DNA of 62,311 bases, the filler included, from Sphacelaria rigidula (taxonomy: Eukaryota), in assembly GCA_964200075.2 (NCBI GenBank). It is 4 parts of 4 records of this genome, joined end to end, with 100 filler letters (N's around TTAATTAATTAA, not from the genome) between each part and the next. Parts side by side here need not be neighbours in the genome. Positions count along the whole stretch, not along the records: positions 46,814 to 62,311 come from CAXNAA020001723.1; 3 more parts are not named here. One strand, written 5' to 3'. The notes beneath the pieces are model-generated. The model saw only the letters and a program-made list of their open reading frames with translations, was not told where the DNA came from and ran no database searches. Shown one piece after another: positions 20,089 to 62,311 of this stretch. Each line of letters begins with the position of its first letter. Positions within the stretch are counted from its first letter, which is position 1. Made by a program: the position numbers and the translations under genes.

Positions 20089-23000
20089 TAGTCCGATTTG
20101 CACGAAGGAGCATATTTATGCTCTGGATCCGTCGAGGAATCGTTTGAAAATTGTGGATCCCTCTCGTACCCCCGATCTCATTTCCTGTCAGGTTCCGCGC
20201 GGGCGGCAACGCCCGTTCCTCCAGGAAATAGCGGAGGTTTCTGGCGAGTATGTGTCGGTAAATCGCGCATGAAACACGGCAGGGGTTAGGGTGTTTGGTG
20301 GGCCTAAGGCGACTCGCATGTGGGATTGCTCGGCTTTGCCAAATAGGGGAAGTCCTGCGACGTTCATCCTAGCAAAGGTATGGATGTCTGCGGTCGCGTA
20401 TGGGGCTGAATTTGGGGCCGCGATGCGGGATATTATTCCTGTATCGTGGGGCGGGTTCAATGGTGATCTGAAAACTTTTATGGACGGCTCACGCAAAGGT
20501 CGAAATTCGGGCACGAGTGCCTGTTTCGCGATCTACGCACATATTGTCCCGGAGGATACTATTTTGTCTGATTTGCTGCTGGGTTGCGATAGGTTAGCTC
20601 AGTGTCCGGTGCGCTCGTATCGCGATGTTAGTGATATCAAAACTACCATGTCGCTCACGGGGCCCGCTCGGGCTGTTGGACCCACCTCGTTCGATCGCTG
20701 AGTTCAAAACGCCGTGGGCATGATTGAACAACCGACGACGTCTGATGGGGAGGTGGTCGTGGTTTTTTCCTGGGAAACTGAGCTGGCTTTGACGCACGAG
20801 TTGCCTTGGGTTCCCGTCACACTGTGCACGCCTGGGGGGGTCCTGCCCCGGACGGTCAGTAATATGTGTATTTCGACGCGGGCTGGTCCCCTTCGGAAAT
20901 GGTTGTGGAGGCGGGGGATTCAACTATTTCTTCGCGCTTCACGGATGTGGAGTGTGCGGTGGCTTTGCCTGGGATGAAATTGGGGTCAGCTGGGTCACCG
21001 CTGACGCCTTGCTCGCACAACGATGCTAAAACTTCCAGGTTGCCGGACTCGGCATCAACTGCCGCTTTTGCACCTGAGACGGTGCAACCGGAGCCGCCGT
21101 AGGCCATGTGTTGTGATTCATGTGCGGAGAAACGTTCCGCTTTTCGTCAGTTAGGGGATCGCATTCCGCTAGACTTGCAAAGTATTAATTTCGGGGGACA
21201 AGACAAATACTGGCAGGTTGAGGACGTTGACAAGTTGGCTGAGGTGCTGTGCAAACTCTCTTACCGGTTTTCGATGGATAAAATGGATTTGGGGTACTGT
21301 ACGGTGGATCCGTTCAAAATCAAGCTGAAGGCGGGGGCTACTCCCATCAAACAACGGCCGTACCGTCACAACCCGGCCACGCAACAGAAGGTGCAGGTCG
21401 CAATTGACCGTTTGTGGCGGGGCTCCTTCGCCGTTCTTACTGCAATTGGAGCTCCCCGTTGGTGGTAGTTAACGAGAAAGATGGGGGCGTACGTTTGACG
21501 TGTAAGTATCGGAAACTTAATGAGGCCACCATCATACCCGTTCTGCCCATTCCTACCATCGGTGAGTTGTTGGACGAGCTCGGAGATGCCAAGGTGTTCA
21601 CCTGCCTGGGTATTCTGTCTGGTTATTTCAACATCTCTATCCACTCTTATACCACTCCTCCTACCGCGGTGTGTACGCAAACTGGTCTGAACCAGTGGTT
21701 GGTGATGCCAATTGGATGTGGTGGGAGCCCGGGGTGGTTTCAATCCATCATGGCTCGAGTGTTAAAAGGTCTGGTGCATTGCCGGTCGTACATCGATGAT
21801 ATTTGTACGTTCAGCAACAATGGGGCCGAACGTGTGAACGATATGACTACCTTTCTGGAGCGTCTCACCAAATTAAACCTGAAATTGGCGCCGAAGAGTG
21901 TTCACTTTGGGGCTGGTGAAAACGCCGAAGAAGACTCACTTTCCTTGGACACCGTATCTCGGCGAAGAAGGTGGACGCCCTGTGCCTCGTGCCGATGCCT
22001 ACTAATGTGAGCGAATTGCGTTCGCTCATGGGGTGTTTGAGTTACTATTGAAATGTATCCCCAAATATTTCGGTCCGTACCAAGGCCATCAACAGGTTGT
22101 TGAAAAAGGGTGCCGATTTCCATTTCACGTCGGACCATGAGAAAACGGTACGCGGATTTCTGGGGGAGTTATCTGGCTCGAAAGTTCCTCCTTTTTCTGA
22201 TTACGATGATGCGGTGTCGGGTGGTTGTCCGTTTATGTCGGTCACGGATGCTAGCAAAGAGGGGCTGGGTGCGGTGGTCGAGCAACGCCATTTGGACGGT
22301 GATGTGCGGCCGCTGTGTTTTTTTAGCCGCAGCACATTGCCTAACGAGTGCAATTGGACTACCACCGAGCTGGAAGCTGGTGTCATTGTGTGGGCAGTTC
22401 AAAAACCGGCCGCTGTTCTGTGGAATACCTTTTCAAATTTACAGCGATCATCAACCTTAGCGAAATTTGTTCAGCCTTGCGGAGAAAGTGACTACGGTCA
22501 AGCGCTGACAAAAAATTCTCAGTGCCTACACCTCTCAGATCTTTTACAAACCCGAGGTGTCGAATTCGAAGGTCGACATGCTATCGCGGCTTCCTCAATT
22601 GCATAGCGAGGACAATGTCATGGATCGGTTTCAAATCTCCGACCCGGCTAATGTGGATGTCTATTTTTTCGGTGCCAGTTTTGTGGTGCCGCGATATTTT
22701 GGCACCCGCCATGAGTCCAGCTTGGATGGGCTTTCGTCCGGGTTGTCTTATCATCGTGCTTCCAGCCTGGATGGGCTTCCTCTCCGAGGATATTTTCACA
22801 GGGGGGGACAGGGCGGATTCGGTCGCACCATTGACAACTTCCGAGGTGACGGACGTTAAATGGAAACGTATTCAAGAGATATTGAAGTCAAAAAGATCTC
22901 AACTGGACTGGAAGTGACCTGAAGTAGTGAAGGATGGTTCGCGGCTTCTCTCCCGGAGTGTTTCCGATGTGGTGTGTGGACACTGGGAACCGGGTGTGTG

Positions 23001-24034
23001 GTAACATGTCTGCCCTGTTACTCAAGTGGAGAAAATGTGTATTACACGAGTCAGCGGGCCCGGAATGTGTTGTAATCACGGAGGGTGATGCCGGGTCGGA
23101 TCATGAGGACGTTTCGGATAATCCCGCGCCCACTGTAGACGCGGTAGAAGCGTGTAATTTTGGGGAGTGATTGTGTGCCAGGCCAGCAGGTGACTGGGCG
23201 CAAATCGAACATACTGACTTGACCTCTCGAACGACTACCCAGTATATCTCACAGGGGAAGACAGTACTCTCGAAAGGAGAGGAAAAATCAGTGAATAGCG
23301 CGATTGACGTGAAATAATTGAGGGCTCTGTTAAGACAAGGAGGATTGTTGGAACTGGCGGACGGTGGCAAACCTTGAGTGAAAAGTTGACCACCCCGCCC
23401 GTGGTGTCGGAGAATCGTAATCCAGGTGTTTTTGAGCGATACCTCGGGAAGAACCGGTGAGAACCTATTCCCCATCGATGCTGAGACCCTGTGTAATGGA
23501 CCTAACACACAACGGAGCAGTGCACCTGAGAGAAAAAGCGACTCTCTTCTGCAACGATATTGTAGGTTGATAGGCATCAAGGAAAGTGTGAAATTCTGGA
23601 TTCGACGCTGCTACTCGTGTCAGACCAAGAAATCTGATCGGTATACTGCGCGGGGGCCTTTGGTCTCGCTACCACTACCCAGTCGGCCAGGGCAAATGGT
23701 AGCTTTTGATTTTCTGGGTAATCTACCTCAAAAGAAGAGAGGTAATAGGCATATGTTTCTCATGATGGAATTTTTCAGTAGACACGCGGAAGCTTACGAT
23801 ATCACTCCCAAAGAGCATCCGGCAACCGGCTGTGCTACGATCATCGCGGGGGATGATGTGCCACGATGGGGTTGCCCGCACAATGTCTTGTCAGATCGGG
23901 GATCGAAGTTCACATCCGCTGTGTGTAGGTCGGTGTACGAAATAATCGGTGCTGTAAAACGATTCACGAGCTCGTATCATCCTCAGACGAATGGGATGGC
24001 GGAGCGGTTGAACCATACTCCATGTCAAATGCTG

Positions 24035-46813: not shown

Positions 46814-47168
46814 TCTCCCCCCCTCTCCCCTCCCCCCCCCCCCGCGCGCGCTGTCCCCGCATCCCCGAATAGAACATCGACTTATCAATCAACTAATCGT
46901 TGTTTTGCATCCATTTGTATTTACCAGATGATGTTACCATTCTCTCTGTCTCTCTGTCTCCCTCTACTCCCTGCCCCCCGATTCCCCCGAAAAGTACCTA
47001 TTTACTTCCAAAAGGAAGTGTATCACCGAAACGGATGGACTTATCCTATCTCAAATATAATCGATCAATTTCGACAGCGAGTTAAAACCAACAGTTACAA
47101 ACGTTGATATAGGTTCATTTGTAATCGCCAAAAAATATCACCCTTCTTTTTCTCTGAACTATCGATAG

Positions 47169-50596
<3,428 letters not shown>

Positions 50597-52334
50597 AGGT
50601 CATACTCCAGCCAGCCAGGAGCATATTTAACGAGCATAATAAGAACGGGATTATTCCAATCCTTGCTATTCGGAACAGTTTCTGGGTCCTCGCTGTGTGC
50701 TTTCGGTTGCACGAGGTACTACGTATGTGTTTCGGCTCTGTCAAGTTCGCTTCGGGAGGGTAGAGCGATAGAGAAGACGTTTTCCCTTCCCTCGTGTCGC
50801 TTGCTTCGTGTCTTTCGTTTTTTCATGTTTTGTTCTTAAAGGCCCGATGATGTGTATCTGTTTGTTTGAAACCTTCTGTTTTCCTCCCTGCTCTTTGCCC
50901 GTGTTCCTGTGTCTGTTTTGAAGAGGGGTTTCGCGTGAAGAACCGCCTCCAGACCTTTTGAGTGATCACCATCTCTGTGCAGCTTGTACAGTCCGCTTAT
51001 ACCTGTAGATCGTGCTTGTTCATTGGAGTTTTGTGCTCTGTAAGTGATGAGAGCTCCGGAACGTTCGTCTCGTCTGTTGATGGGTGTGGGGATGTATGCC
51101 CCCTCACCAGAGGGAAGGAATTAAAATGTCCAACAACGAACGAGATAAGCACACAACATTGCCGAAGGGGAAATCGCCGTTTTTCGTCAGTCGAAAGTAA
51201 CTGGTGTTTTGAAAATGTGATGCGTAGTTTGTGTTTTCAGCCATGAAACCCGAGCGGAGAAATAAGATGTGCTTTTCACCTTATTTACGGGGTCTCGTCA
51301 AATCAAACAAGTGGCGCAAAAAATACTCGAGAGGGGAAATAACATGTTCGGGGGATCAGGAACGATTTTCGTTTTCGGAACGGGTTCGAAGTTGATTTGG
51401 GGCATTTGGCTACCGATCGATTTTAGGCAGGTAACTTGAAGACGTGTTTTTTTCTTTAAAAGCTTGCCAGCAGAAGAGGCAGAGATCACCATGTTCCAAC
51501 GGCGGTGGGGATTAGCGGCGATGCCAAACCGAGAGAGAAGCAGTGACTTTGTTTCTCCTTGTATCCTCCATTGAAGATCTCTGGAGACGTCTGTGTGGTG
51601 TCATCAGTCGGCATTGGGGCATGAAACACAAGGAGTAGGCTACTAGCACGACATATATGTCCTGCACAACCGCAGGTAAATGTGCCCCAACCATCCGTAC
51701 CCCACTCCACCATGCACAACAACCCGCAGAGGTTGGAATACCGAGTTCGTATCATGGAGTACGCACCCTTGAAATTCGTTAGATATTTCGCAAAAGGGCT
51801 TCGATCTGTCGATTCGATTCTTCGCGGGAGAGCTTTCATAAGGCATTCGAAACTTAATTGAAGAATTGTCACGAAGAAAGGTACTGCTTTACTGTTCTCG
51901 CACACTGTTCTCGCAATACGGACTGTAACATCATGTATTACCGCTTGGCATCATTGTCTACTGTGATGGGTGCGTGTTCTGCACCGTATTATACCCTACA
52001 GTACTACGGTTAGACAATTTTCTTGATGGATAACTCACTGTCTGCCTGTTCCTCGGCTTCAGTTTCTTCATGCGATACCACACTCCCGCAGAAGATGAGC
52101 CTCGGTGTACAGAAATAACCATTTCGACACATCTGTGAAACCATAATAAAGCCCTGCAATCCGATTTTCACAAATTTTGGTCACCCCGATTTTGCACAGA
52201 TTGGGATCTTCGCAGATTCGGGAATTGTCCCCATAATGACAGTTCTCACGGCTGGTTGACGGATTTTGGATCTGCGTTCCATCTCGTTTGTTTGAAGCTG
52301 TACTCTCTCCTTGAGAGAGGCTGGGATGCTGCTC

Positions 52335-53060
52335 TCTGATATAAAACACGGGGCTTGACAATCGGGGATGGATTTTGTAATGAGGAGGAGGAACCGTAGA
52401 ATTGAAATCTTCGTACCCACACCAAATCTTCGAAATATAGTTCCACTCCTTCACCTACTGGTAGCTGTTGACAACTACTACACACCATACGAATTTGTAT
52501 CCTAACAGCCGATATGTTGGGGTCCTAGTTCAAGAAACGACTTCGGAGTCATCCTACGATAGGGGGGGTGGTAACCGTTTTTTGCACGAAAAAAAAGGCT
52601 CATGGGTGTGTCAGATGACCTGCCACACTCGCGGCGCGTTTGTATTTGGTTAAAAATGTTATCAAACAGTATGAACGAGCGTTATACGCGTTATATATCT
52701 ATACCAAGCTCGTTGGAACAATGATTGTTGCTTTTAACAACGATTTGACTTGGAATTACGTGCAAGAAGTGGCCCGAAATACCCCACCCATCTATCGTAG
52801 GATGACTCTCCGGGGAATTGACATGATCCGATCAGATCGCCGAAATTCCCAAATGTTGGATTTTTTATCTAGGACCCCAACATTTCGGTTTTCGAAGTCC
52901 AAATTTGTATGTCGTGTAGTAGTTGTCAATAGCTACCAGCAAGTGAAGAAATAGAACCATATTTCGAAGATTTGGTGTGGGTGCGAAGATTTTAATTCTC
53001 TGGATTTCTCATCCTCGATAAAACATCCATTCCCAGTTTGGAAAATCCCGTGTTATACTC
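52335..53060. mobile_element. Fold-back element (~200-bp arms) with a MITE nested in its spacer
   Basis: cccacaccaaatcttcgaaatat...tgacaactactacac (52416-52484) is inverted at ~52914-52981. The inner arms (tgttggggtcctag) and outer arms also pair. Confidence 0.8.
52546..52808. mobile_element. Complete MITE, TIR GAGTCATCCTACGATAG, ~4-bp TSD (ttcg/tccg), Sola-like
   Basis: Perfect 17-bp TIRs with GAG...CTC termini. Confidence 0.85.
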
Positions 53061-53509
53061 CAATGCCCGTCTAAGGATTCATATGTGGAAAAACTGAATT
53101 CGAAGTCTATGCACCAATGATGGAAGGGGTTCACCACGTAGCTGTCTGGTCTTGAGTGCAGAACTCTACCTGTCGCATTCCATTGACGTAGCACGGGTTT
53201 CGTGTTCCGATTTGATTTGGAATATACCATCGCTGTTAAAAACAAACCCACACCCAGCTAGGAGAATCTCATTAAAGAACCCATCAGCCCTCTACTTGGA
53301 GAGATCCCGCTTGTTCAAGACCCCTTCACTGCGCGCGCACGTGAGTCTACGTTTGAAACAGTACTACATGGGACTTCCTGGTCCTTTGTCTTGTGTGCTA
53401 GGCGTATGTAGACGCACCCATTACAAGGTAGCTGGACGGTTGCACGTTTCAACCCCTCGCTGGTGTGCTTGTGTGGACTATCCGTGCACTCAGACACTCG
53501 ACCATTCCA

Positions 53510-53535
53510 TGGTGTCTAATCCGAGAGTCGAACTC
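53510..53535 (+). promoter_or_regulatory. Primer-binding site of element B
   Basis: TGGTGTCTAATCCGAGAGTCGAACTC is the complement of GAGTTCGACTCTCGGATTAGACA-CCA (tRNA T-arm plus acceptor strand). Confidence 0.8.
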
Positions 53536-56500
53536 CGATTCCCACAGAAGGATAGGGTTTGGCATGATTGTGCTGCAGCATCGCTGTGCGGGCTGTGAGG
53601 GCGACTGTAGCAAGTGCTTCACTTCAAGGGAGAATAGCCTGTTGGGATTGAGTATTCACCGCCGGGAAGAGGTGGCGAAGGGTTCGTACACTGGTGTTTT
53701 GCGATTCCTGAGGACACGTCACACTGGATACGGCGGCAAATCACGCAATCATACACGAAATGTTCACCGCGGCGGGGGACCCGACAGGCTATTTTTGAAG
53801 AAGAGAAGAACTGGCCACAGTCGCCCTCACAGCCCGCAGCAATGCTGCGGCACAATCTTGCCGAACCCTACCCTTCCCCCGAAGCTCCCCCCCGCCCGGG
53901 TAGCCCCCACAATGCCCTTCTATCCCCAAGTGCCCGCCGTCTCCCGCGCTACAGCACCTACCGTCGCCGCGTTCAGCAACCAGCTAGCGACTCGGACTTA
54001 CACGACATCCCGTTCGTGAAGCAAGAGCTAAAACCCGACCGGCCCATGCACCACGACTTAGCCCCGGGGCGTGCTGTCGATCACCCGGTAGTTGGTACGC
54101 AAGCGAAACCCTCGGTACCCCAGTCCAGTGCACTTCTTCACTGCCAGCAGGCGCCGCCGCATCTGCTCAAGTGACTCAATCCACTGAGCCGTCCATGCGC
54201 CCGGCCGGTCTCGACCGGAATAGCAGCAGTCATGGAGTTCCTGCGCGAGCACATATTGTGCGTCGGTCACGCGTTCACCGGTTCATGCTGTCAACGGGGC
54301 AATACCCCTTGCCCATGAACGAGCGACATTATTCCGACATTCCTCTGAAGCGTGTTGCGTGCCCGCCGCAAAGCCTTCATTCCCCAACGCCGGCCTGAAG
54401 CATGAACAGAGGTCGGATACTTGCCCGCTCTAGACATGGGCCCCATCGGAGAAGACTATATAGCGATCTTGTGGAGGTGCTGACTGTACCATCAGGAGCA
54501 GTCGCCGACAGTATCGATTTCTCGCCCGACGCATGAACGTGCGCCTTAGGTACGACTGACCTGGGGAACCGACGACGGCCAACTCCTGCAATGGCTACCA
54601 AGCGCCACGGAAGCCGACTCTGGGTAACGGGTGACGTATGGCATCGTCGGCGTCTCCGCCGCCCGCGGAGAGGTTTTGGTAGACATCAGAGTAAGTGGGG
54701 GTAACTCTATATCGGGAATGTTGTTGCGTAGCCTGCACAAGGCTAGCATGTCAGACGGTGCTCTCAACCGAGGCGTTCACTGTGTCGCCAGCCCTCCTCA
54801 GGGAAATGTCCCTACGATGCCTATATTTGGATCCGTAACGGTTCCCCTGCTCCTGACCTCCGACTCACGGGCCCGTCCCATAGTCGTGAAAAAGTGGAGG
54901 ATATACAGCATAACTTTGGTTGAGGATGGAGTACCGTAGGTCCAATGAGAGTGGCTTAGACTTCGGCCCACGCAAAGGGTCCCACCCATCGCCATCGGCC
55001 CCATGGATCCCGTTTCTGATTAATGACAGCCCCCGCCACCACACACAAAACATATCAGTAGCCTTGAATGCGACGCCCGAGTCCTTTACCCGCCCACCCG
55101 TGCCCTCAACCTCACTGGCCCACAACCCTCTCAGCTACCACATCACTTGGGGAGATGGCAGCACCCTAGAGTGGAAGCTCCACCTGGTTGATCCAGCTTT
55201 TGTGATGAGTGGACTCGTCAGCATCGCCGTGGAAATGACTGCTGTCGGACCTCAGCCGCAAGATCGGCAGGTCATTCTCGTACTTCCCCAGGCTGAGTTT
55301 GGTTTGGATGGGTAGGCAGTAGTATGGGTAGCCAAGGGAGTGTTGTGGTGACTGCCGGGGTCGTCGGTGCACCGTGAATATGGAAATAAGAGTAAGGATC
55401 AGGTAGCGGTAAAGACTGGCGGTACCATCGTGCGTATGATAGCACTAGCTGCAAGTGATCCCGTCCGGTTACCACAACTTTTCGACCCAAGTCCATCCAC
55501 GGTAGACCCCCGTCGCAACCCTGTTCCCGTGCCACACACCCCGACAATGTATGCTGGATCTCACCGCCTCTCAAGCATATCAGACGCAAACACAAGACAG
55601 TTAGATTGGGTAAAGAAAATTGTGTACGTCCTGCTGGGCCCCTATACACGCTGGACTATTCCCCACAAACCCCAAGAGGCTTCGGGCTTGCATCAACGGT
55701 GAGCTAGAACTCCCCATTCACCCGTCTTGTACACAATTTATTTGCAGCAAAATAGCGCCGATTTTCTCCCGAAGAACGTCACAAGATTCGCGAGAAAGTA
55801 CACAAGCTTCTTGGCAGAGAGATCATCCGATCTTCAGTCTCTTCGTGCGCTGCCTAGTGTTTTTGCGTTGAGTAAAAGAATAGTACCCTAACTTTGTGTA
55901 CCGATTGGCGTGAACTCAACAAAGTCTTGGTGTGAGACATTTGGGACTCGGGAGATATGCAATCGATGTTCGACGGTCTCAAAGGCAAGCGTTATTTCAT
56001 GCGACTCGACCTTGCGTCAAAATTCCGCCAAATCAAAATCGCAGAAAAGGGCCATCACAAAACGGCATTCTGAGATGCGGAAGACCTACTCTACGAGTTC
56101 ACCCGGACCTGCTTTGGTCTAACGGTTTGCCCACAGCTTTCACCCGTAGAGTGAAATCATCGGCACGTCATTTAGATGGAGTATTTAGCTGGTTTGACGA
56201 CGTCTTTTTCGCCGGTGCATTATGAGACGAGCACCTAGCTTTGCTCGTGATCGTTCTGCAGCGGTTGCTAGTCGCGGGATTCGCTGTAAACTTAGTCAAA
56301 CTCAATTTCGCATCCACATCACAGGAGATTTTGTGCATGCTGATCAAAAGCAATGGTCTCTAACTTGCCCCTTCTCAGATTGCAGCTATCGCTGAGATGC
56401 CCAGACCGTCCTCCATCGAGGAACTGCGTACTTTTTAGAAGTGACAGTTTATCTGCGACAGTTCACGAAGAAGTACAGCATGGTCGCCACTCTGCTAGTC

Positions 56501-56573
56501 GGTCTGCTCCGCAACAAAGATTTCGTATCCAAGAGAGAGCGGGAATTACCCATACACTATGGTGCTGAGAAGG

Positions 56574-57162
56574 TGTGATGGTATATGACCGCGTGCGAGA
56601 ATTAAACTAGCTCCTTGGAGTATAACGGTCATTTTCACAAACTACCGGCAAGTAAGAGAAGAGGATCCTAGTCGAATGTGTGCTTGTGTAAAGTGGAAAT
56701 TGGATTATTGCATGGTTGATTTGGCGTTTTGATGAGCTGGTATTCGGACATGTCTGTCCAGCGTGAGTCATATAGGGCACACGCTTGCCAACGCTTGATT
56801 GGCCGGAGGCACGCGCCGGGATGATTTTGTCATACGACTGTTGTGCGCGAGGCAGGGTAAAGGTTGAGCCGCGATCTTGCACCTCTTTCCCTCTCAGTCT
56901 CACTTGTGCTCACGGACTAAAACTTTCGACATCTTTTATATAAGAGCCTTCAAACATCGCCTACCTGCCGATCTCTCCAACGATACTGGTCTTCAAGTCC
57001 ACGTCCGACCGATGTAAGTTGTGAAGCTGCTGTGTTTGTATTATAACCCCCCTTCCTCCGCCTCGCCAATCGATAGTAATTATCTGAAAGGCTTGGTGTG
57101 TAGTTCCCCAAAACAGCGGCAATTTGAGTGCCTAAGCAGAGAGTCTTCGGCCGCGTATCACA
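56574..57162 (+). mobile_element. Candidate solo LTR inserted between RT and RNase H of element B
   Basis: tgtgat...atcaca inverted termini and a TATA-like tttatataag at ~56935. It interrupts pol homology. No clean TSD. Confidence 0.45.
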
Positions 57163-60100
57163 AGCTGAACACAGGACTAGCTTGTCTGGATCCCTTCCTT
57201 GGGGTGCGGCTTGCTCTGCTACTGTTGATACTCTAGCACAGGAGCAAGTGTTCCAGGCGCTCAAAGTCGCACCATCTGCTTCGGCGGTACTAGCCTTCTC
57301 CGACCTCAACAACTCGTTTGTGCTTCAGACGGACGCGACCGAGATCGGAGGGGGGGAGTATCTCGACGGCCAGTCGGACTCGAAACTCGTATCGTATCCT
57401 TCGCTACCACATATTATTTCGTACTGACTCGCGCACGGCGTCCACAGAACTAGAGTGCATGGTCGTACTATGGGGTGCACAACGGTTCAGGTCATACTTA
57501 GCCGGTAAGAGGTTCAAGTTAATCGCCAATTGCTTGGCACTCATATGGCAGTTGCGCATTCCCGATCACCACCCCAAGCTACACAGGTGGGCGCCCAGGT
57601 TAAAGGAGTTCGATATCCAGCTCCAGCGGCGAGAGGGACCGCGGTATGTGCTACCGAATACCTTGTCCCGCCTTCCGCAAGCGAGTGAAATACAAGCCGA
57701 CATCGATGACTCATTCCCAGATGATTTCACGTCGGGTTCATTATCCGATTTTGCGGGTCACCGGGGGCCACAACTTGCGGGACAGCGATTGTCGGAATTG
57801 TCGCCGGGTGGTACAGATAGATCTGCGAACACCAACACAACTCTGTTACCGCTACCCAACCCCAACATACCTGCTGATCTTGCTTCCCTGAAGTTATCGC
57901 AGATTGCGCAGCAATCGACGACCGCCAATCTGTCCGCCGATCGGTCCAGATCCGCAGACCGACCATACGGTTGAAACTCCCGACGTCGCGCGCATATCTC
58001 CTCTGCCACCCGGTCTCCACGCGGCAGACCCGAGACTGCCGGCAGTGCCGTCACTGATCGAAGTTCCGTCATAGGTGCCATCATCTGTCACTCCGCCGAC
58101 AGTCAGCAAGCGCACGGAGATAGGCGAGGTCCTCTACGGAAGAGAAGACGTGCCTAGTTCACTCGCAGAATTCCGCCTGATGGACACAGCGGCAATTGAT
58201 CGTGCCTTGCTGACCCTTACCAACTCAACTAACCTGAACCGCCACCAACAAGAAGATCCCCTTTGGAATACGTGCGATCGGAACTGGGGGGCAACGGGAC
58301 GGCCGAAGTAGTACGAGAGAGGCGGTTGAAGCACAAGATAGACGGGCAAGGCATACTGCGATATACGATAGTCGAAAACAAGCAGTTGCTGGCTGCCACG
58401 AAAAACAATGATGGCCGACCTGTCCGCGCTCGTTCACATAGTTCATGGATATGTCAGAGCAGGTGTAACTCAAGCCTTGATGCGTGACCGCTTGCATTGG
58501 CCACCGAGGACGAAAGACATCAGGTAGTACGTGCTGCCATGAGGTTGCGAGAGGCGCAAGAGGGCGAGCAGTCGCTAAATGGCAATAAGGCCAGCGTGTG
58601 CGGTAGACCCATGGTGCGAGCTAGAGATCGACGTGTTCGCGAATGATATAACATCGCATTCACACAAGCACCTCCCCCCCCCCCCCCATATTCGATCGGG
58701 TTTCCAAGTTTCCATTTGGGTTTCCTTTGCCATCGCAACAAGCCGCCGCGGTAGCCCGTATCCTTGCGGAATCGTGCTTAATCTTCGGTGTCCCCAACAA
58801 AATCCGCTGTGGCAGAGGCGAGGAGTTTCGGACCGAGGTGGTCACCCGTCTGTGCAGGTGGATCAAAGCTATCATCGCCTTCGGACCGTCAAATCATACA
58901 CGGAACCAGGGCGCAGTCGAGAGACTGGGGGGATGGCTGTTCAATATGCTGTCAGAGCTTCGCAGGTCATCATGGTCTCAGAGGTGGGATGAATACGTCT
59001 CACCCGCTTTTTGAATCAAGCGCACATTCCCTGACACATTACTTCCCTCTGGCATGTAGGCCTTCGAATTAATATGTGGCCGTATGCCGCGCACATCGCT
59101 AGGTTTGCTCGTGCCTCTTTCGGAGGAAGCATAATTGAGCAAAGGACGGCACGATTACGTCGAACAGCGCAAACAGAACCTGCTCGAGATGAGACTGGCG
59201 TGAGGGCAAAGCAAGGCAGCAAAAGCAACGGCACGAGCGAGCTGTAACTCTACCGTCTCTAAGCTGTCAGCAGGTGTCAGTCAAGGAAGGAGACCTGGTA
59301 ATGGTTCGGGAGAGTGAGAGTCCAATGTATCGGATTGGTACTCGTAGACGAAGGAAACTGCAACATGAAAAGTATACGGGACCTTGGGGGGTAAAATAAG
59401 TGCTGATGGTGGAGCTCGGTGTGGAGGCAGTGACGCAAGAACGCAAACCACGTACTCGCAAGGTAGCTCCGTCAGTCGTTAAGCCGTATCACGTATGCCC
59501 GTAACACCTGAGACATTCAACCGCTGGCGAGTCCGCCCCATTCCTCTGGGGACCAGACTTCAATGCGGTGTCAACCTCCAATCCAAAACCCCACATCCTT
59601 CCCCAATGGGGCGTCGCGAGTCCAGATTCCCGACGGGAACTACAGGTTTGGAATGGCGAGAAAAGGCGCAGGATGGAGCCGTGTCGGAATGACTGCCGGA
59701 GAGCAAAATACTCGAGAGCTTTACACCCTTGAAGCTCAACACGTTCTATGCCCTCTGCCCTTCGTATCGCCCCGCCAAGGCATCTGACACACCGTTCCGC
59801 CCTGATGCACCTCATGCCCCCTTGTCGCACGGTGATGCTCTCAGTCTGTTCCTCCATAGATTTCACATATAGGAAAGATTTCGGTGGGAGTAAGCAGAGG
59901 GGACAGATTTTTCGACTTCGGCAAACGATTCTGGAGAGTGAGATGCGACGACGGAGAATGGGAGGAGTTGTAAGGTACAGACCTCCAATAACTGGCCAGG
60001 AATCCGAGCAAGCCCACGGCAACGACCGCTGTAAACTGGAAGACGGTAAAATGCGAAAGGAGCAGAGAAGAGCACTAGACGGAGCAAAGCGGAGAATAAT

Positions 60101-60574
60101 CATGTCTTGTTCTGTACTATAGGAGCAAACGGCAGCTCGTTTTTTTAATTTCGTTTGTTGTGGTGGTTTGCTTTTCTTCTTGCTCTTTTGCTCCTTGGTT
60201 TTGTTGTGTTTTTTCTGTGCATGATTCTTGATTGGCCTGGTGCTGTCCAACTATGTTTGTCTTGGTGGTGTAGTTCATTTGGTTTTTGTTCCTTCAAGTT
60301 ATTGGCTGTTCTAGGTCCGTTCATCACTATTTTTCGTTCCTCGGGGAACGTGAGCTCGACCTTAGGGCGCCTAGCCCTTCTCTCGAAAAAGTGCAGACGT
60401 AGTCCTGCGCTTTATCGGCATTGTATAGAAGGGTAGGCGTCAAATACCTGCTTGGACACTGCGTAGTGATGAAGTAATCTACTAGCCTATGGTGTAGGAG
60501 TCCCCCAGTGTCCGGTAGAATGGCAGTCACGGGTCGATGAGATGGTTGCCGCTCAAAATGAACCTTCTCATTAA

Positions 60575-60719
60575 CCCTTTGGGAACTCAAGTGCTGATTC
60601 TTGTTTTGTGAATCTTTGTGAATCGGCATCATTTTGACTNNNNNNNNNNAATGACTGAACATGATGCCGATTCACCAAAACAAAAATCAGCACTCCCTGG
60701 GGGTCTAGTTCCCAAAGGG
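60575..60719. mobile_element. piggyBac-type fold-back MITE in the 3' region of element B
   Basis: TTAA|ccctttgggaact ... agttcccaaaggg|TTAA; inner arms gtgaatcggcatcat / atgatgccgattcac. Confidence 0.85.
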
Positions 60720-62240
60720 TTAACTTGTAAGCGATTTCTTGGGTATTTTCAGTGTCGGTGCGAGCTCTATACTACCCACGGTCGGTGTAACTGACCGGAA
60801 GTGTCCAAGCGCAGATACCGTGTGTTTTCAGTAGCAACTGATCTCCAATGTAACTGAGATTCCGAGCGGACGCATAGGACGCGCGAAAGCGGTTGCTATA
60901 ATCGGAAGGAGCATGAGGGACTTCCCCCTAAGAGATGACGCTTTTCCCTGAACATCAATTCTTGCCCGTTACCTGAAATTCATGACGGGTGTTTCCCGCG
61001 ACCAATTCTAGCTCCAAATTTTGCGGGTTTCTCGTCCTTGTCATGACGGAAGGCTGGTGGCATACAGATGTGGGTGAATTACCCCCGGAGTCATGTCGAT
61101 ATCGCGATGGTTCTTGTTTCGTATCGGAAACACGCATAAGGCGAGAGGGGGGGATGTCACGACTGATATCAGCCGCGTGGGTAAGAGGCGTTCCGGAGTA
61201 CGCATGCTATGTACAGTAGGTCGTATTCGACTTGTGTAGTACGGGTGTTGTGTTCCGGCCTCATTTTGAGTATACCCTTGCTGTTGAGATAAAACCTACA
61301 CCCGGGTAGAAAATTTTGATAGAAGAACCCATCAGCCCTCCCCTCCACTTCGAGAGACCCCGCTTGCATTCAAGACTCCTTCACTGAACCCGCACGTGAG
61401 TCTAGGTTTGAAACAGTACTGCATGGGACTTCCTGGTCTGATGCCTTGTGTGCTGGGCGCATAAAGACGTACCTATTACAAACTAGCTGGTCGCTTGCAC
61501 TTTGAGGTGGTCGCTTGCACGTTGCAATCCCCAGCTCGTGTGCTTTTATGCAATATCTGTGCACTTTTGAGCACTCAACCATTTCAGATGTAATGACTGG
61601 TGTTAGAAACCAGGCCTAAGCGCCTCACATGTAGATTCACCTCGGTCGCCCATCAGACGTTTCTGAGGGGATCTTTCGAGGCATCACTCGATGCGCGATT
61701 ATGTTCGTTGACAGCGGGGATCATGTTATTGCGGGCGGTACGAGTTCAATCATGATTGTTGTTAATATCTTTGAGAAATAATGGATCTTCGAACCGCTCT
61801 CCGTCTGGACACACCGTTCTGGCGGAACCTAGGACGCAACTCCTCATCCTCTTGAACCAATTGTTCAAATGGCGACATTATTTTCTCGAAATTGAGTCAG
61901 CTTCCATAACAGGTACCAATGAGTCCTTTCTCGTTAGACATGCACAGTACACGAAACACCCCTGTACATACACCCCCATTCAGTGACTCACGATTCACGG
62001 CGATTCGTATTCTCGACGGTCGCGTCTTAACGAGACAAGAAATCTGAGAACGTAACGATGACAAGGATGATGATATAACGATTCACAACTTTAACATAAT
62101 GAGAAAGCGCCCCCTTTCCTATCGAAAGCGAAAAATAAGTGGTCAAAATGCAATGGCGATGACAACACGCAAACAGACCATGAATTCCCAGCAGGCCGGC
62201 ATTGTCGCATGGTCAAAACGCGGACCGCCTCAAGTACGAT

Positions 62241-62311
62241 CAGTGTTGTGAACCGAAAACCGAAAATTCGGTTTTCGGTCTGTTTTTCGGTAGGTTTTTG
62301 CCAACCGAAAC
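62241..62311. mobile_element. Left end of a hAT-like element, cut by the window end
   Basis: cagtgttgtgaaccg followed by repeated AACCGA/TTCGGT subterminal motifs. Confidence 0.55.

Follow-up and report, generated by a model that had tools for sequence, protein, structure and literature searches.

A predicted chromodomain fold ahead of a Tudor-like module in the integrase tail of a dead Ty3/Gypsy element from Sphacelaria rigidula

The Ty3/Gypsy remnant and its tail

The window analysed in this study is a 62,311-nucleotide stretch of DNA from Sphacelaria rigidula (GenBank assembly GCA_964200075.2), in which parts of four records are joined end to end with filler letters; the last part, positions 46,814 to 62,311, comes from record CAXNAA020001723.1. 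At about 53.2-61.6 kb the window contains an old, dead copy of a Ty3/Gypsy long terminal repeat (LTR) retrotransposon, in which the pol gene is broken and its protein can no longer be encoded. The copy itself is a relic without functional consequence. Our subject is the C-terminal tail of its integrase, where a first-pass annotation of the DNA had proposed a chromo-like stretch followed by a Tudor-like domain.

All features of the element are on the + strand. Two direct repeats flank gag-pol, at 53172-53515 and at 61220-61591, and are the putative 5' and 3' LTR remnants. In a local alignment 275 of 342 aligned bases are identical (80%), and the same pair was recovered by blastn (78% over 284 nt) and by repeat search. 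Between them is the pol remnant (54670-60009), with a protease-like region, reverse transcriptase, RNase H, integrase and the tail. The intact Pol proteins P0008 and P0005 align to it by tblastn in 13 and 12 colinear pieces respectively, which alternate between frames and run from the N-terminal protease-like region through the last residue.

The reverse transcriptase region (55735-56569) is 52-63% identical to the residues of P0008 and P0005 that hold PF00078, and the open reading frame (ORF) at 55936-56070 has an RVT_1 match in Pfam (E 0.053). About 650 bases between the reverse transcriptase and RNase H pieces (56570-57190) are not matched in the intact relatives by tblastn; either an insertion or advanced decay may explain this gap. 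The RNase H region (57230-57941) is colinear with P0008 residues 592-828, and the ORF at 57294-57971 matches RT_RNaseH (Pfam: PF17917) with E 5.8e-9. The integrase catalytic core and the start of the integrase C-terminal region (58652-59293) are 57% identical to P0008 residues 1085-1285, and the ORF at 58652-59011 matches rve (Pfam: PF00665) with E 0.0039. When single ORF pieces of the window were searched against Pfam, only these weak matches to rve, RNase H and RVT were found, and the tail had no match at all, PF21743 included. The six full-length intact relatives have the domain order of Ty3/Gypsy elements in Pfam, namely RVT_1, RT_RNaseH, Integrase_H2C2 and rve, and their colinearity with the window extends over 54670-60009.

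To locate the tail, a profile hidden Markov model (A1) was built on the tail sequences of seven intact relatives and run against the complete six-frame translation of the window, where X stands for a stop. The profile matches the window in three frames, at 59615-59866 (E 2.3e-15), 59878-60000 (E 1.2e-7) and 59499-59579 (E 0.017); elsewhere in the six frames there is nothing better than E 0.13, followed by 0.3. The weakest of the three matches covers profile positions 3-29 and falls at the end of the integrase C-terminal (SH3-like) region with the tail-opening motif 'LRH..DEFA..W..DF' (59262-59579), which is 50% identical to P0008 residues 1276-1374 and is interrupted by an in-frame stop at 59502-59504. 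It is followed by a decayed module at 59594-59770, for which the chromodomain fold is predicted from the relative P0008 and which corresponds to profile positions 42-93 within the strongest match. In this module the reading frame shifts near 59640-59650, and a stop stands at 59690-59692, a position held by tryptophan in 29 of 30 relatives. A proline-rich linker (59771-59818) separates it from the decayed PTM/DIR17-type Tudor-like module (59819-60000), whose profile positions 130-170 give the match at 59878-60000. Here the frame changes are found near 59848-59856 and 59905-59912 and the stops at 59971-59973 and 59989-59991.

The first-pass annotation had assembled its peptide by correcting frameshifts at about 59852 and 59910, and both are borne out by the frame changes of the Tudor-like module. 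The peptide pieces it quoted are present in the DNA: '...SHGDALSLF' in frame 2 (59693-59869), IDFTYRKDFGGSKQRGQIF in frame 3, and FDFGKRFWRVRCDDGEWEEL followed by TAA in frame 1 (59860-59973). The chromo-like stretch it described was found as well, as 'RVQIPDGNYRF' and then LEWREKAQDGAVSE, a stop and 'LPESKIL'. Reading across 59400-60000 passes through frames 3, 1, 2, 3 and 1, with one more change near 59580-59600 in addition to those named above, and crosses the four stops at 59502-59504, 59690-59692, 59971-59973 and 59989-59991. The reconstruction is confirmed as real and far beyond chance. Homology continues for a few residues past the TAA at 59971, with 'EEL(stop)GTDLQ(stop)LAR' in the window and EELSRRELERLSR in the relatives, so the domain ends near 60000, slightly beyond the peptide first proposed.

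Intact relatives and the spread of the tail

Of 658 candidate proteins, 31 that are longer than the integrase-core ORF (58652-59011) match it at E<=1e-5, with 59-68% identity in the best cases. We examined 11 relatives, and seven of them have the full tail: P0003, P0004, P0005, P0006, P0008 and P0014, with lengths of 1521-1592 amino acids (aa), and P0007 with 558 aa. The tail alignment does not include the remaining four, of which P0002, P0013 and P0015 end before the tail and P0011 is a chimeric Ectocarpus gene model. In all seven full-tail relatives the same extension of about 170 aa follows the integrase C-terminal region, and the protein stops 2-10 residues past the helix of the Tudor-like module. 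The first-pass annotation had named intact copies that stop before the segment, or carry it out of frame, as evidence against its proposal; all seven continue through the segment in frame with the integrase, and the tail thus belongs to the integrase polyprotein.

Mean pairwise identity among the six intact Pols is 0.55 in the chromo-like and 0.62 in the Tudor-like module, compared to 0.27 in the linker, the lowest value, and 0.38 in the spacer between RNase H and integrase. For comparison, it is 0.65 in the integrase zinc domain and 0.73 in the integrase core. Both tail modules are therefore conserved well above their surroundings.

Against 1.84 billion representative proteins the A1 profile has 462 matches at E<=1e-3, 199 at E<=1e-10 and 21 at E<=1e-30. 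Most of the 150 matches listed are short fragments. Among 14 longer, more distant matches scanned with Pfam, PF21743 is found at E<=0.01 in seven, and reverse transcriptase and/or integrase domains in most. The relatives with a named source are from Ectocarpus sp. CCAP 1310/34 (P0011 and eight members of P0007's 90% cluster) and Nemacystus decipiens (P0065 and P0051), in line with the brown-algal setting that the first-pass annotation had considered. The Ectocarpus proteins P0195-P0202 cluster at >=90% with the tail-bearing P0007, and one of them, P0197 (1881 aa), ends in the complete two-module tail (residues 1711-1881, E 1.8e-82).

A divergent subgroup of the matched proteins, outside the window (P0154, P0124, P0177/P0213, P0102, P0163 and P0116), has 120-170 more residues after the Tudor-like module. 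The extra stretch has the common pattern 'FG..(Y/F)(V/I)G..(L/V)RY.F.TGW.RG.L ... F.V.F ... SW.(I/V)L' and, judged by this pattern, resembles one more small barrel; in Pfam it has no match at E<=5. Furthermore, P0011 of Ectocarpus and P0107 are gene models in which a Copia-type reverse transcriptase (Pfam: PF07727) is fused to a Gypsy-lineage integrase or Tudor piece. They are probably nested transposon insertions annotated as one gene.

Sequence families and predicted folds of the two modules

PF21743, the PTM/DIR17-like Tudor family, is found at the extreme C-terminus, in the last 55 aa or so, of all seven intact relatives (E 7.7e-6 to 0.036, 14.3-26.0 bits), and is the sole Pfam family on that stretch. 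With its Tudor part alone, the tail profile also matches two cellular-type proteins, P0150 with three PF21743 repeats (149.2 bits; tail-profile E 2.5e-15 in the whole library) and P0162 of the diatom Corethron pennatum with a bromodomain and four PF21743 repeats (173.5 bits; tail-profile E 2.2e-14 in the whole library). The retroelement tails, P0150 and P0162 have the motif 'G..V.K.F.....G.V......YW.V.Y.D.D.EEL...E' in common, and homology to undisputed members of the family is reciprocal. The proposed PTM/DIR17 Tudor type of the last module is upheld by these matches.

We modelled the whole tail of P0008 with AlphaFold2 (AF2) from a 35-sequence alignment. The model has a mean predicted local distance difference test score (pLDDT) of 85 and a predicted template modelling score (pTM) of 0.51, and consists of two compact domains with a low-confidence linker between them (pLDDT 67-68), which suggests that the chromo-like and Tudor-like modules probably move independently. 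Tail residues 111-170 reach a pLDDT of 96-97 and form a small beta-barrel. The model was compared to 48,161 PDB representatives with the structural search VIA. Tail residues 107-171 match small beta-barrels with Z 5-6.9, among which Tudors are prominent (Z 5.0-6.2): BAHCC1 TTD (Z 6.2), Spindlin-4 (6.1), RDM15 (6.1) and SMN (5.8), and also PHF20L1, PHF19, MTF2, SETDB1 and LBR. Foldseek with the whole-tail model found the SETDB1 Tudor with E 9.3e-3 and the PHF1 Tudor with TMt 0.60 and a root mean square deviation (rmsd) of 2.6. The predicted module is hence a small barrel of four to five strands that superposes on solved Tudors. The conserved aromatic residues of the Tudor-like module, namely Y/F before the beta3 turn, W147, Y151 and W156 (tail numbering, from the alignment), are candidate cage residues.

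The chromo-like part was additionally modelled alone (P0008, 66 residues, 45 sequences), with pLDDT 90.5 and pTM 0.75. In the model, two long strands (residues 8-17 and 20-28) and a short third one are followed by a C-terminal helix of 14 residues (49-62), a predicted three-stranded antiparallel sheet with C-terminal helix that superposes on chromodomains. Ranks 1-35 of the 50 VIA matches listed are all chromo or chromoshadow domains, with Z 6.5-3.6 and 49-64 of the 66 residues covered. The best are Oxpecker (Z 6.5, rmsd 2.8, 59 residues aligned), Chp1 (6.0), SUV39H1 (6.0), Chd1 CD2 (5.8), Rhino (5.8) and HP1 (5.7), and the first unrelated fold appears at Z 3.4. In Foldseek the rows with a template modelling (TM) score >0.5 are chromo or chromoshadow domains as well, at E values of only 0.2-1.1. 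As a lead only, Chromo is found in 26 of the 30 nearest ESM-Atlas clusters, with a top score of 0.91.

In HP1-type chromodomains the methyl-lysine cage consists of three aromatic residues, Y24, W45 and Y48, and the chromodomains of Gypsy elements are classed as group I or II by their cage. In the family of the chromo-like module (n=30) every member has an aromatic residue at W23, Y/F25 and F55, 29 members have one at W37 and 28 at W59. Position 29 was mapped by eye to the canonical cage tryptophan, using the more canonical relative P0145 ('YQVKW').

A proposed chromatin tether and its alternatives

We propose that the window holds a dead Gypsy copy of a stramenopile (brown-algal) lineage whose integrase had a four-part tail of about 170 aa that would act as a chromatin tether, and we give this reading a probability of about 0.75. 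The architecture, the in-frame position in intact relatives, the conservation and the two predicted folds rest on data; the function is inferred. The tail would comprise the conserved lead-in motif, a chromo-fold module of about 60 aa, a flexible proline-rich linker of about 20 aa and a PTM/DIR17-type Tudor barrel of about 55 aa, whose short C-terminal helix lies at the end of the protein. By analogy to the chromodomains of chromoviruses, it may tether the complex of integrase and cDNA to chromatin and thereby bias the sites of new insertions. Of the two modules, the Tudor would more likely read a modified histone tail directly, and the chromo-fold module could be a second reader or a contact to protein or nucleic acid. 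The probable origin of the Tudor module is capture from a PF21743-type chromatin protein of the host.

Several results weigh against this proposal. The window copy is dead, with at least four frame changes and four stops in its last 600 bases. None of the seven PF21743 scores reaches the gathering cut-off (27.2 bits), and VIA ranks an unrelated small barrel first for the Tudor part (VapXD chain, Z 6.9). Chromo (Pfam: PF00385) is matched by none of the seven whole proteins at E<=1 and by none of 30 isolated segments at E<=10. In sequence searches of the PDB the whole-tail profile has no match at E<=10, and a chromo-only profile of the 30 segments finds no chromodomain at E<=10, with a single spurious nanobody match (E 0.055). 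The notes to VIA rate scores of Z 5-7 as middling. With neither model did Foldseek reach E<=0.001 in the PDB; the best values were 9.3e-3 for the whole tail and 0.21 for the chromo-like part. At the putative cage position 29, 18 of 30 family members have an aromatic residue, compared to only two of nine in the window's subfamily, as far as the mapping by eye goes.

Because Foldseek gave no match at the threshold, we relied on the VIA ranking, and the argument for the chromo fold is based on the exclusivity of this ranking and on the full-domain coverage, not on the size of Z. On the predicted model, the stretch before the Tudor has a chromodomain fold that is too diverged for sequence models. 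Of the chromo-like domain claimed in the first-pass annotation, the fold thus stands, as the model ranks with chromodomains, and a match to the Chromo sequence model does not. The Tudor assignment of the C-terminal module is accepted on the combined evidence of sequence and predicted fold, with the curated Pfam threshold narrowly missed. A two-module tail is therefore supported by the PF21743 matches and the reciprocal Tudor homology together with the fold matches of the chromo-like part.

The alternative that survives best, which we regard as unlikely but serious, is that the Tudor alone reads chromatin and the chromo fold is a structural or dimerisation element, similar to a chromoshadow domain (CSD), or a nucleic-acid or protein contact of the intasome. 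Since position 29 is so rarely aromatic in the window's subfamily, it is doubtful that the chromo module has a classical methyl-lysine cage, and a chromoshadow-like or other non-reader role is a live rival. This is also what the missing Chromo match and the chromoshadow domains among the best structural matches would suggest (Swi6 CSD with TM 0.53-0.60, Chp2 CSD with Z 5.5 and HP1alpha CSD with Z 5.2). However, Oxpecker, Chp1 and Rhino in the top Z rows are histone-binding chromodomains solved with H3K9me3, the nearly invariant aromatic residues W23, Y/F25 and W37 could form a non-canonical pocket, and the chromo module is about as conserved as the Tudor.

Very unlikely, in our estimate, is a C-terminal barrel that is a diverged duplicate of the SH3-like domain of the integrase, or a generic SH3/KOW barrel, with Pfam matches produced by motif convergence. 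The PF21743 scores below the cut-off leave room for it, SH3, KOW, CarD and UvrD-type barrels are level with Tudors in the top VIA rows, and Foldseek lists a weak match to a three-domain integrase of a retrovirus (4fw2, E 0.13). However, PF21743 is the only family assigned to this stretch in the seven relatives and is found again in half of the 14 more distant proteins, the tail profile retrieves with a common motif the bona fide three- and four-repeat proteins P0150 and P0162, and the integrase's own SH3 domain (Pfam: PF24626) is separately present upstream in the relatives.

A chance pattern in decayed non-coding DNA, or a Tudor-like piece from a neighbouring host gene, is refuted: the peptide does need its at least four frame changes and four stop read-throughs across 59400-60000, but the tails of the relatives are in frame in seven of seven, the profile matches (E 2.3e-15 and 1.2e-7) are confined to this locus, and the locus is colinear with intact Pol to the last residue.

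A more far-reaching version of the chromatin tether is a bivalent reader, in which the cryptic chromodomain and the Tudor would jointly recognise a combination of brown-algal marks, for example H3K79me2 and H4K20me3 on repeats, and so steer insertions into silenced, repeat-rich regions. We consider this improbable and put it forward as speculation. If true, the third barrel-like module of the divergent subgroup would extend it to a modular and evolvable 'reader cassette' on integrases.

HIV-1 integrase is tethered via the PWWP domain of host LEDGF/p75, a royal-family reader that links the intasome to marked nucleosomes. There the integrase binds a host protein that supplies the reader, whereas in the present tail the predicted reader folds are built into the integrase polypeptide. 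Similar to chromoviruses and other chromodomain-bearing Gypsy elements, the tail has a chromo-fold module behind the SH3-like domain of the integrase, with presumed tethering to marked chromatin. It differs from chromoviruses in that its chromo module is missed by the Chromo sequence model and a second royal-family module follows. The cellular PF21743 proteins P0162 and P0150 are similar to the tail in their motif and in tail-profile E values of about 1e-14 to 1e-15, and are a likely source family of the module. Unlike the tail they have repeated Tudors and other chromatin domains and no adjoining chromo-like module, and unlike them the transposable element (TE) copies of the Tudor score below the gathering cut-off.

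A Tudor-bearing Gypsy lineage is already published, which weakens the novelty of the idea in the first-pass annotation. As described in the text of PMC12477816 (Genome Biol 2025), four Ectocarpus Gypsy lineages have chromatin-reader domains, three of them a C-terminal chromodomain and one, Gypsy-10_Ec32, a C-terminal Tudor; the chromodomain-bearing lineages are placed outside chromoviruses and Chronos. According to the same text, no TE with a Tudor domain had been reported before Gypsy-10_Ec32; it also mentions a homolog in Tribonema minus and suggests chromatin-targeted insertion. The published element measures 11,528 bp and has 636-bp LTRs. Gypsy-10_Ec32 so described is like the window element a brown-algal Ty3/Gypsy with a C-terminal Tudor on Pol, whereas the window copy measures only about 8.4 kb between LTR remnants of about 340-370 bp. 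Since Ectocarpus P0197 has the same tail as the relatives of the window element, the latter probably belongs to the Gypsy-10_Ec32 lineage, judging by this shared tail. The clustering of P0007 with Ectocarpus P0195-P0202 and the single Tudor-bearing Ectocarpus lineage in the account of PMC12477816 are consistent with one lineage. The passages of that paper considered here, one supplementary table row and the supplementary figure legends mention no chromodomain-like module for the Tudor lineage, a statement that does not extend to the main figures (Fig. 1C). Our literature searches found no earlier report of a combined chromo and Tudor integrase tail, with PMC12477816 as the sole relevant paper; on PF21743/DIR17 they found only a paper on the ECOD classification. 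The capture of readers by TEs is reviewed in bioRxiv 10.1101/2021.11.30.470311, which cites MAGGY with its C-terminal chromodomain.

The cryptic chromodomain fold directly upstream of the Tudor, conserved across the lineage, appears to be unreported so far. This study moreover adds that the tail is widespread, with matches in 462 representative proteins, and that its Tudor part is homologous to the repeats of cellular bromodomain-Tudor proteins in stramenopiles. Integrase-fused readers are natural reporters of the chromatin marks that define safe landing sites. According to the text of PMC12477816, brown algae are without the heterochromatin marks H3K9me and H3K27me3 and without DNA methylation, and because these classical marks are lacking, the targets of TE-borne readers could point to heterochromatin-like marks in these algae.

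Other features of the window

No second copy of the element was found within the window, as tblastn of its pieces gave self-matches only and the tail profile over six frames is confined to the one locus. A second, distantly related Gypsy pol remnant is located at 21420-24034 (+), whose reverse transcriptase and integrase pieces share 23-28% identity with P0008 and P0005; the tail profile has no match in it. Seven sequencing-run rows contain the window stretch or part of it; all are contigs, one of them labelled algae metagenome, and there is no RNA row among them.

About 1.2 kb (60010-61219) separate pol from the 3' LTR remnant and include a T-rich low-complexity stretch at about 60130-60300 and an N run at 60640-60649. 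Paired runs of 44 N are found at other places of the window. The N runs are assembly gaps, and distances within 60010-61219 may therefore be unreliable. Inverted repeats are found just upstream of the 5' end of the element (52342-52536 and 52861-53057, 80% identity) and just inside it (53547-53646 and 53780-53876, 82% identity).

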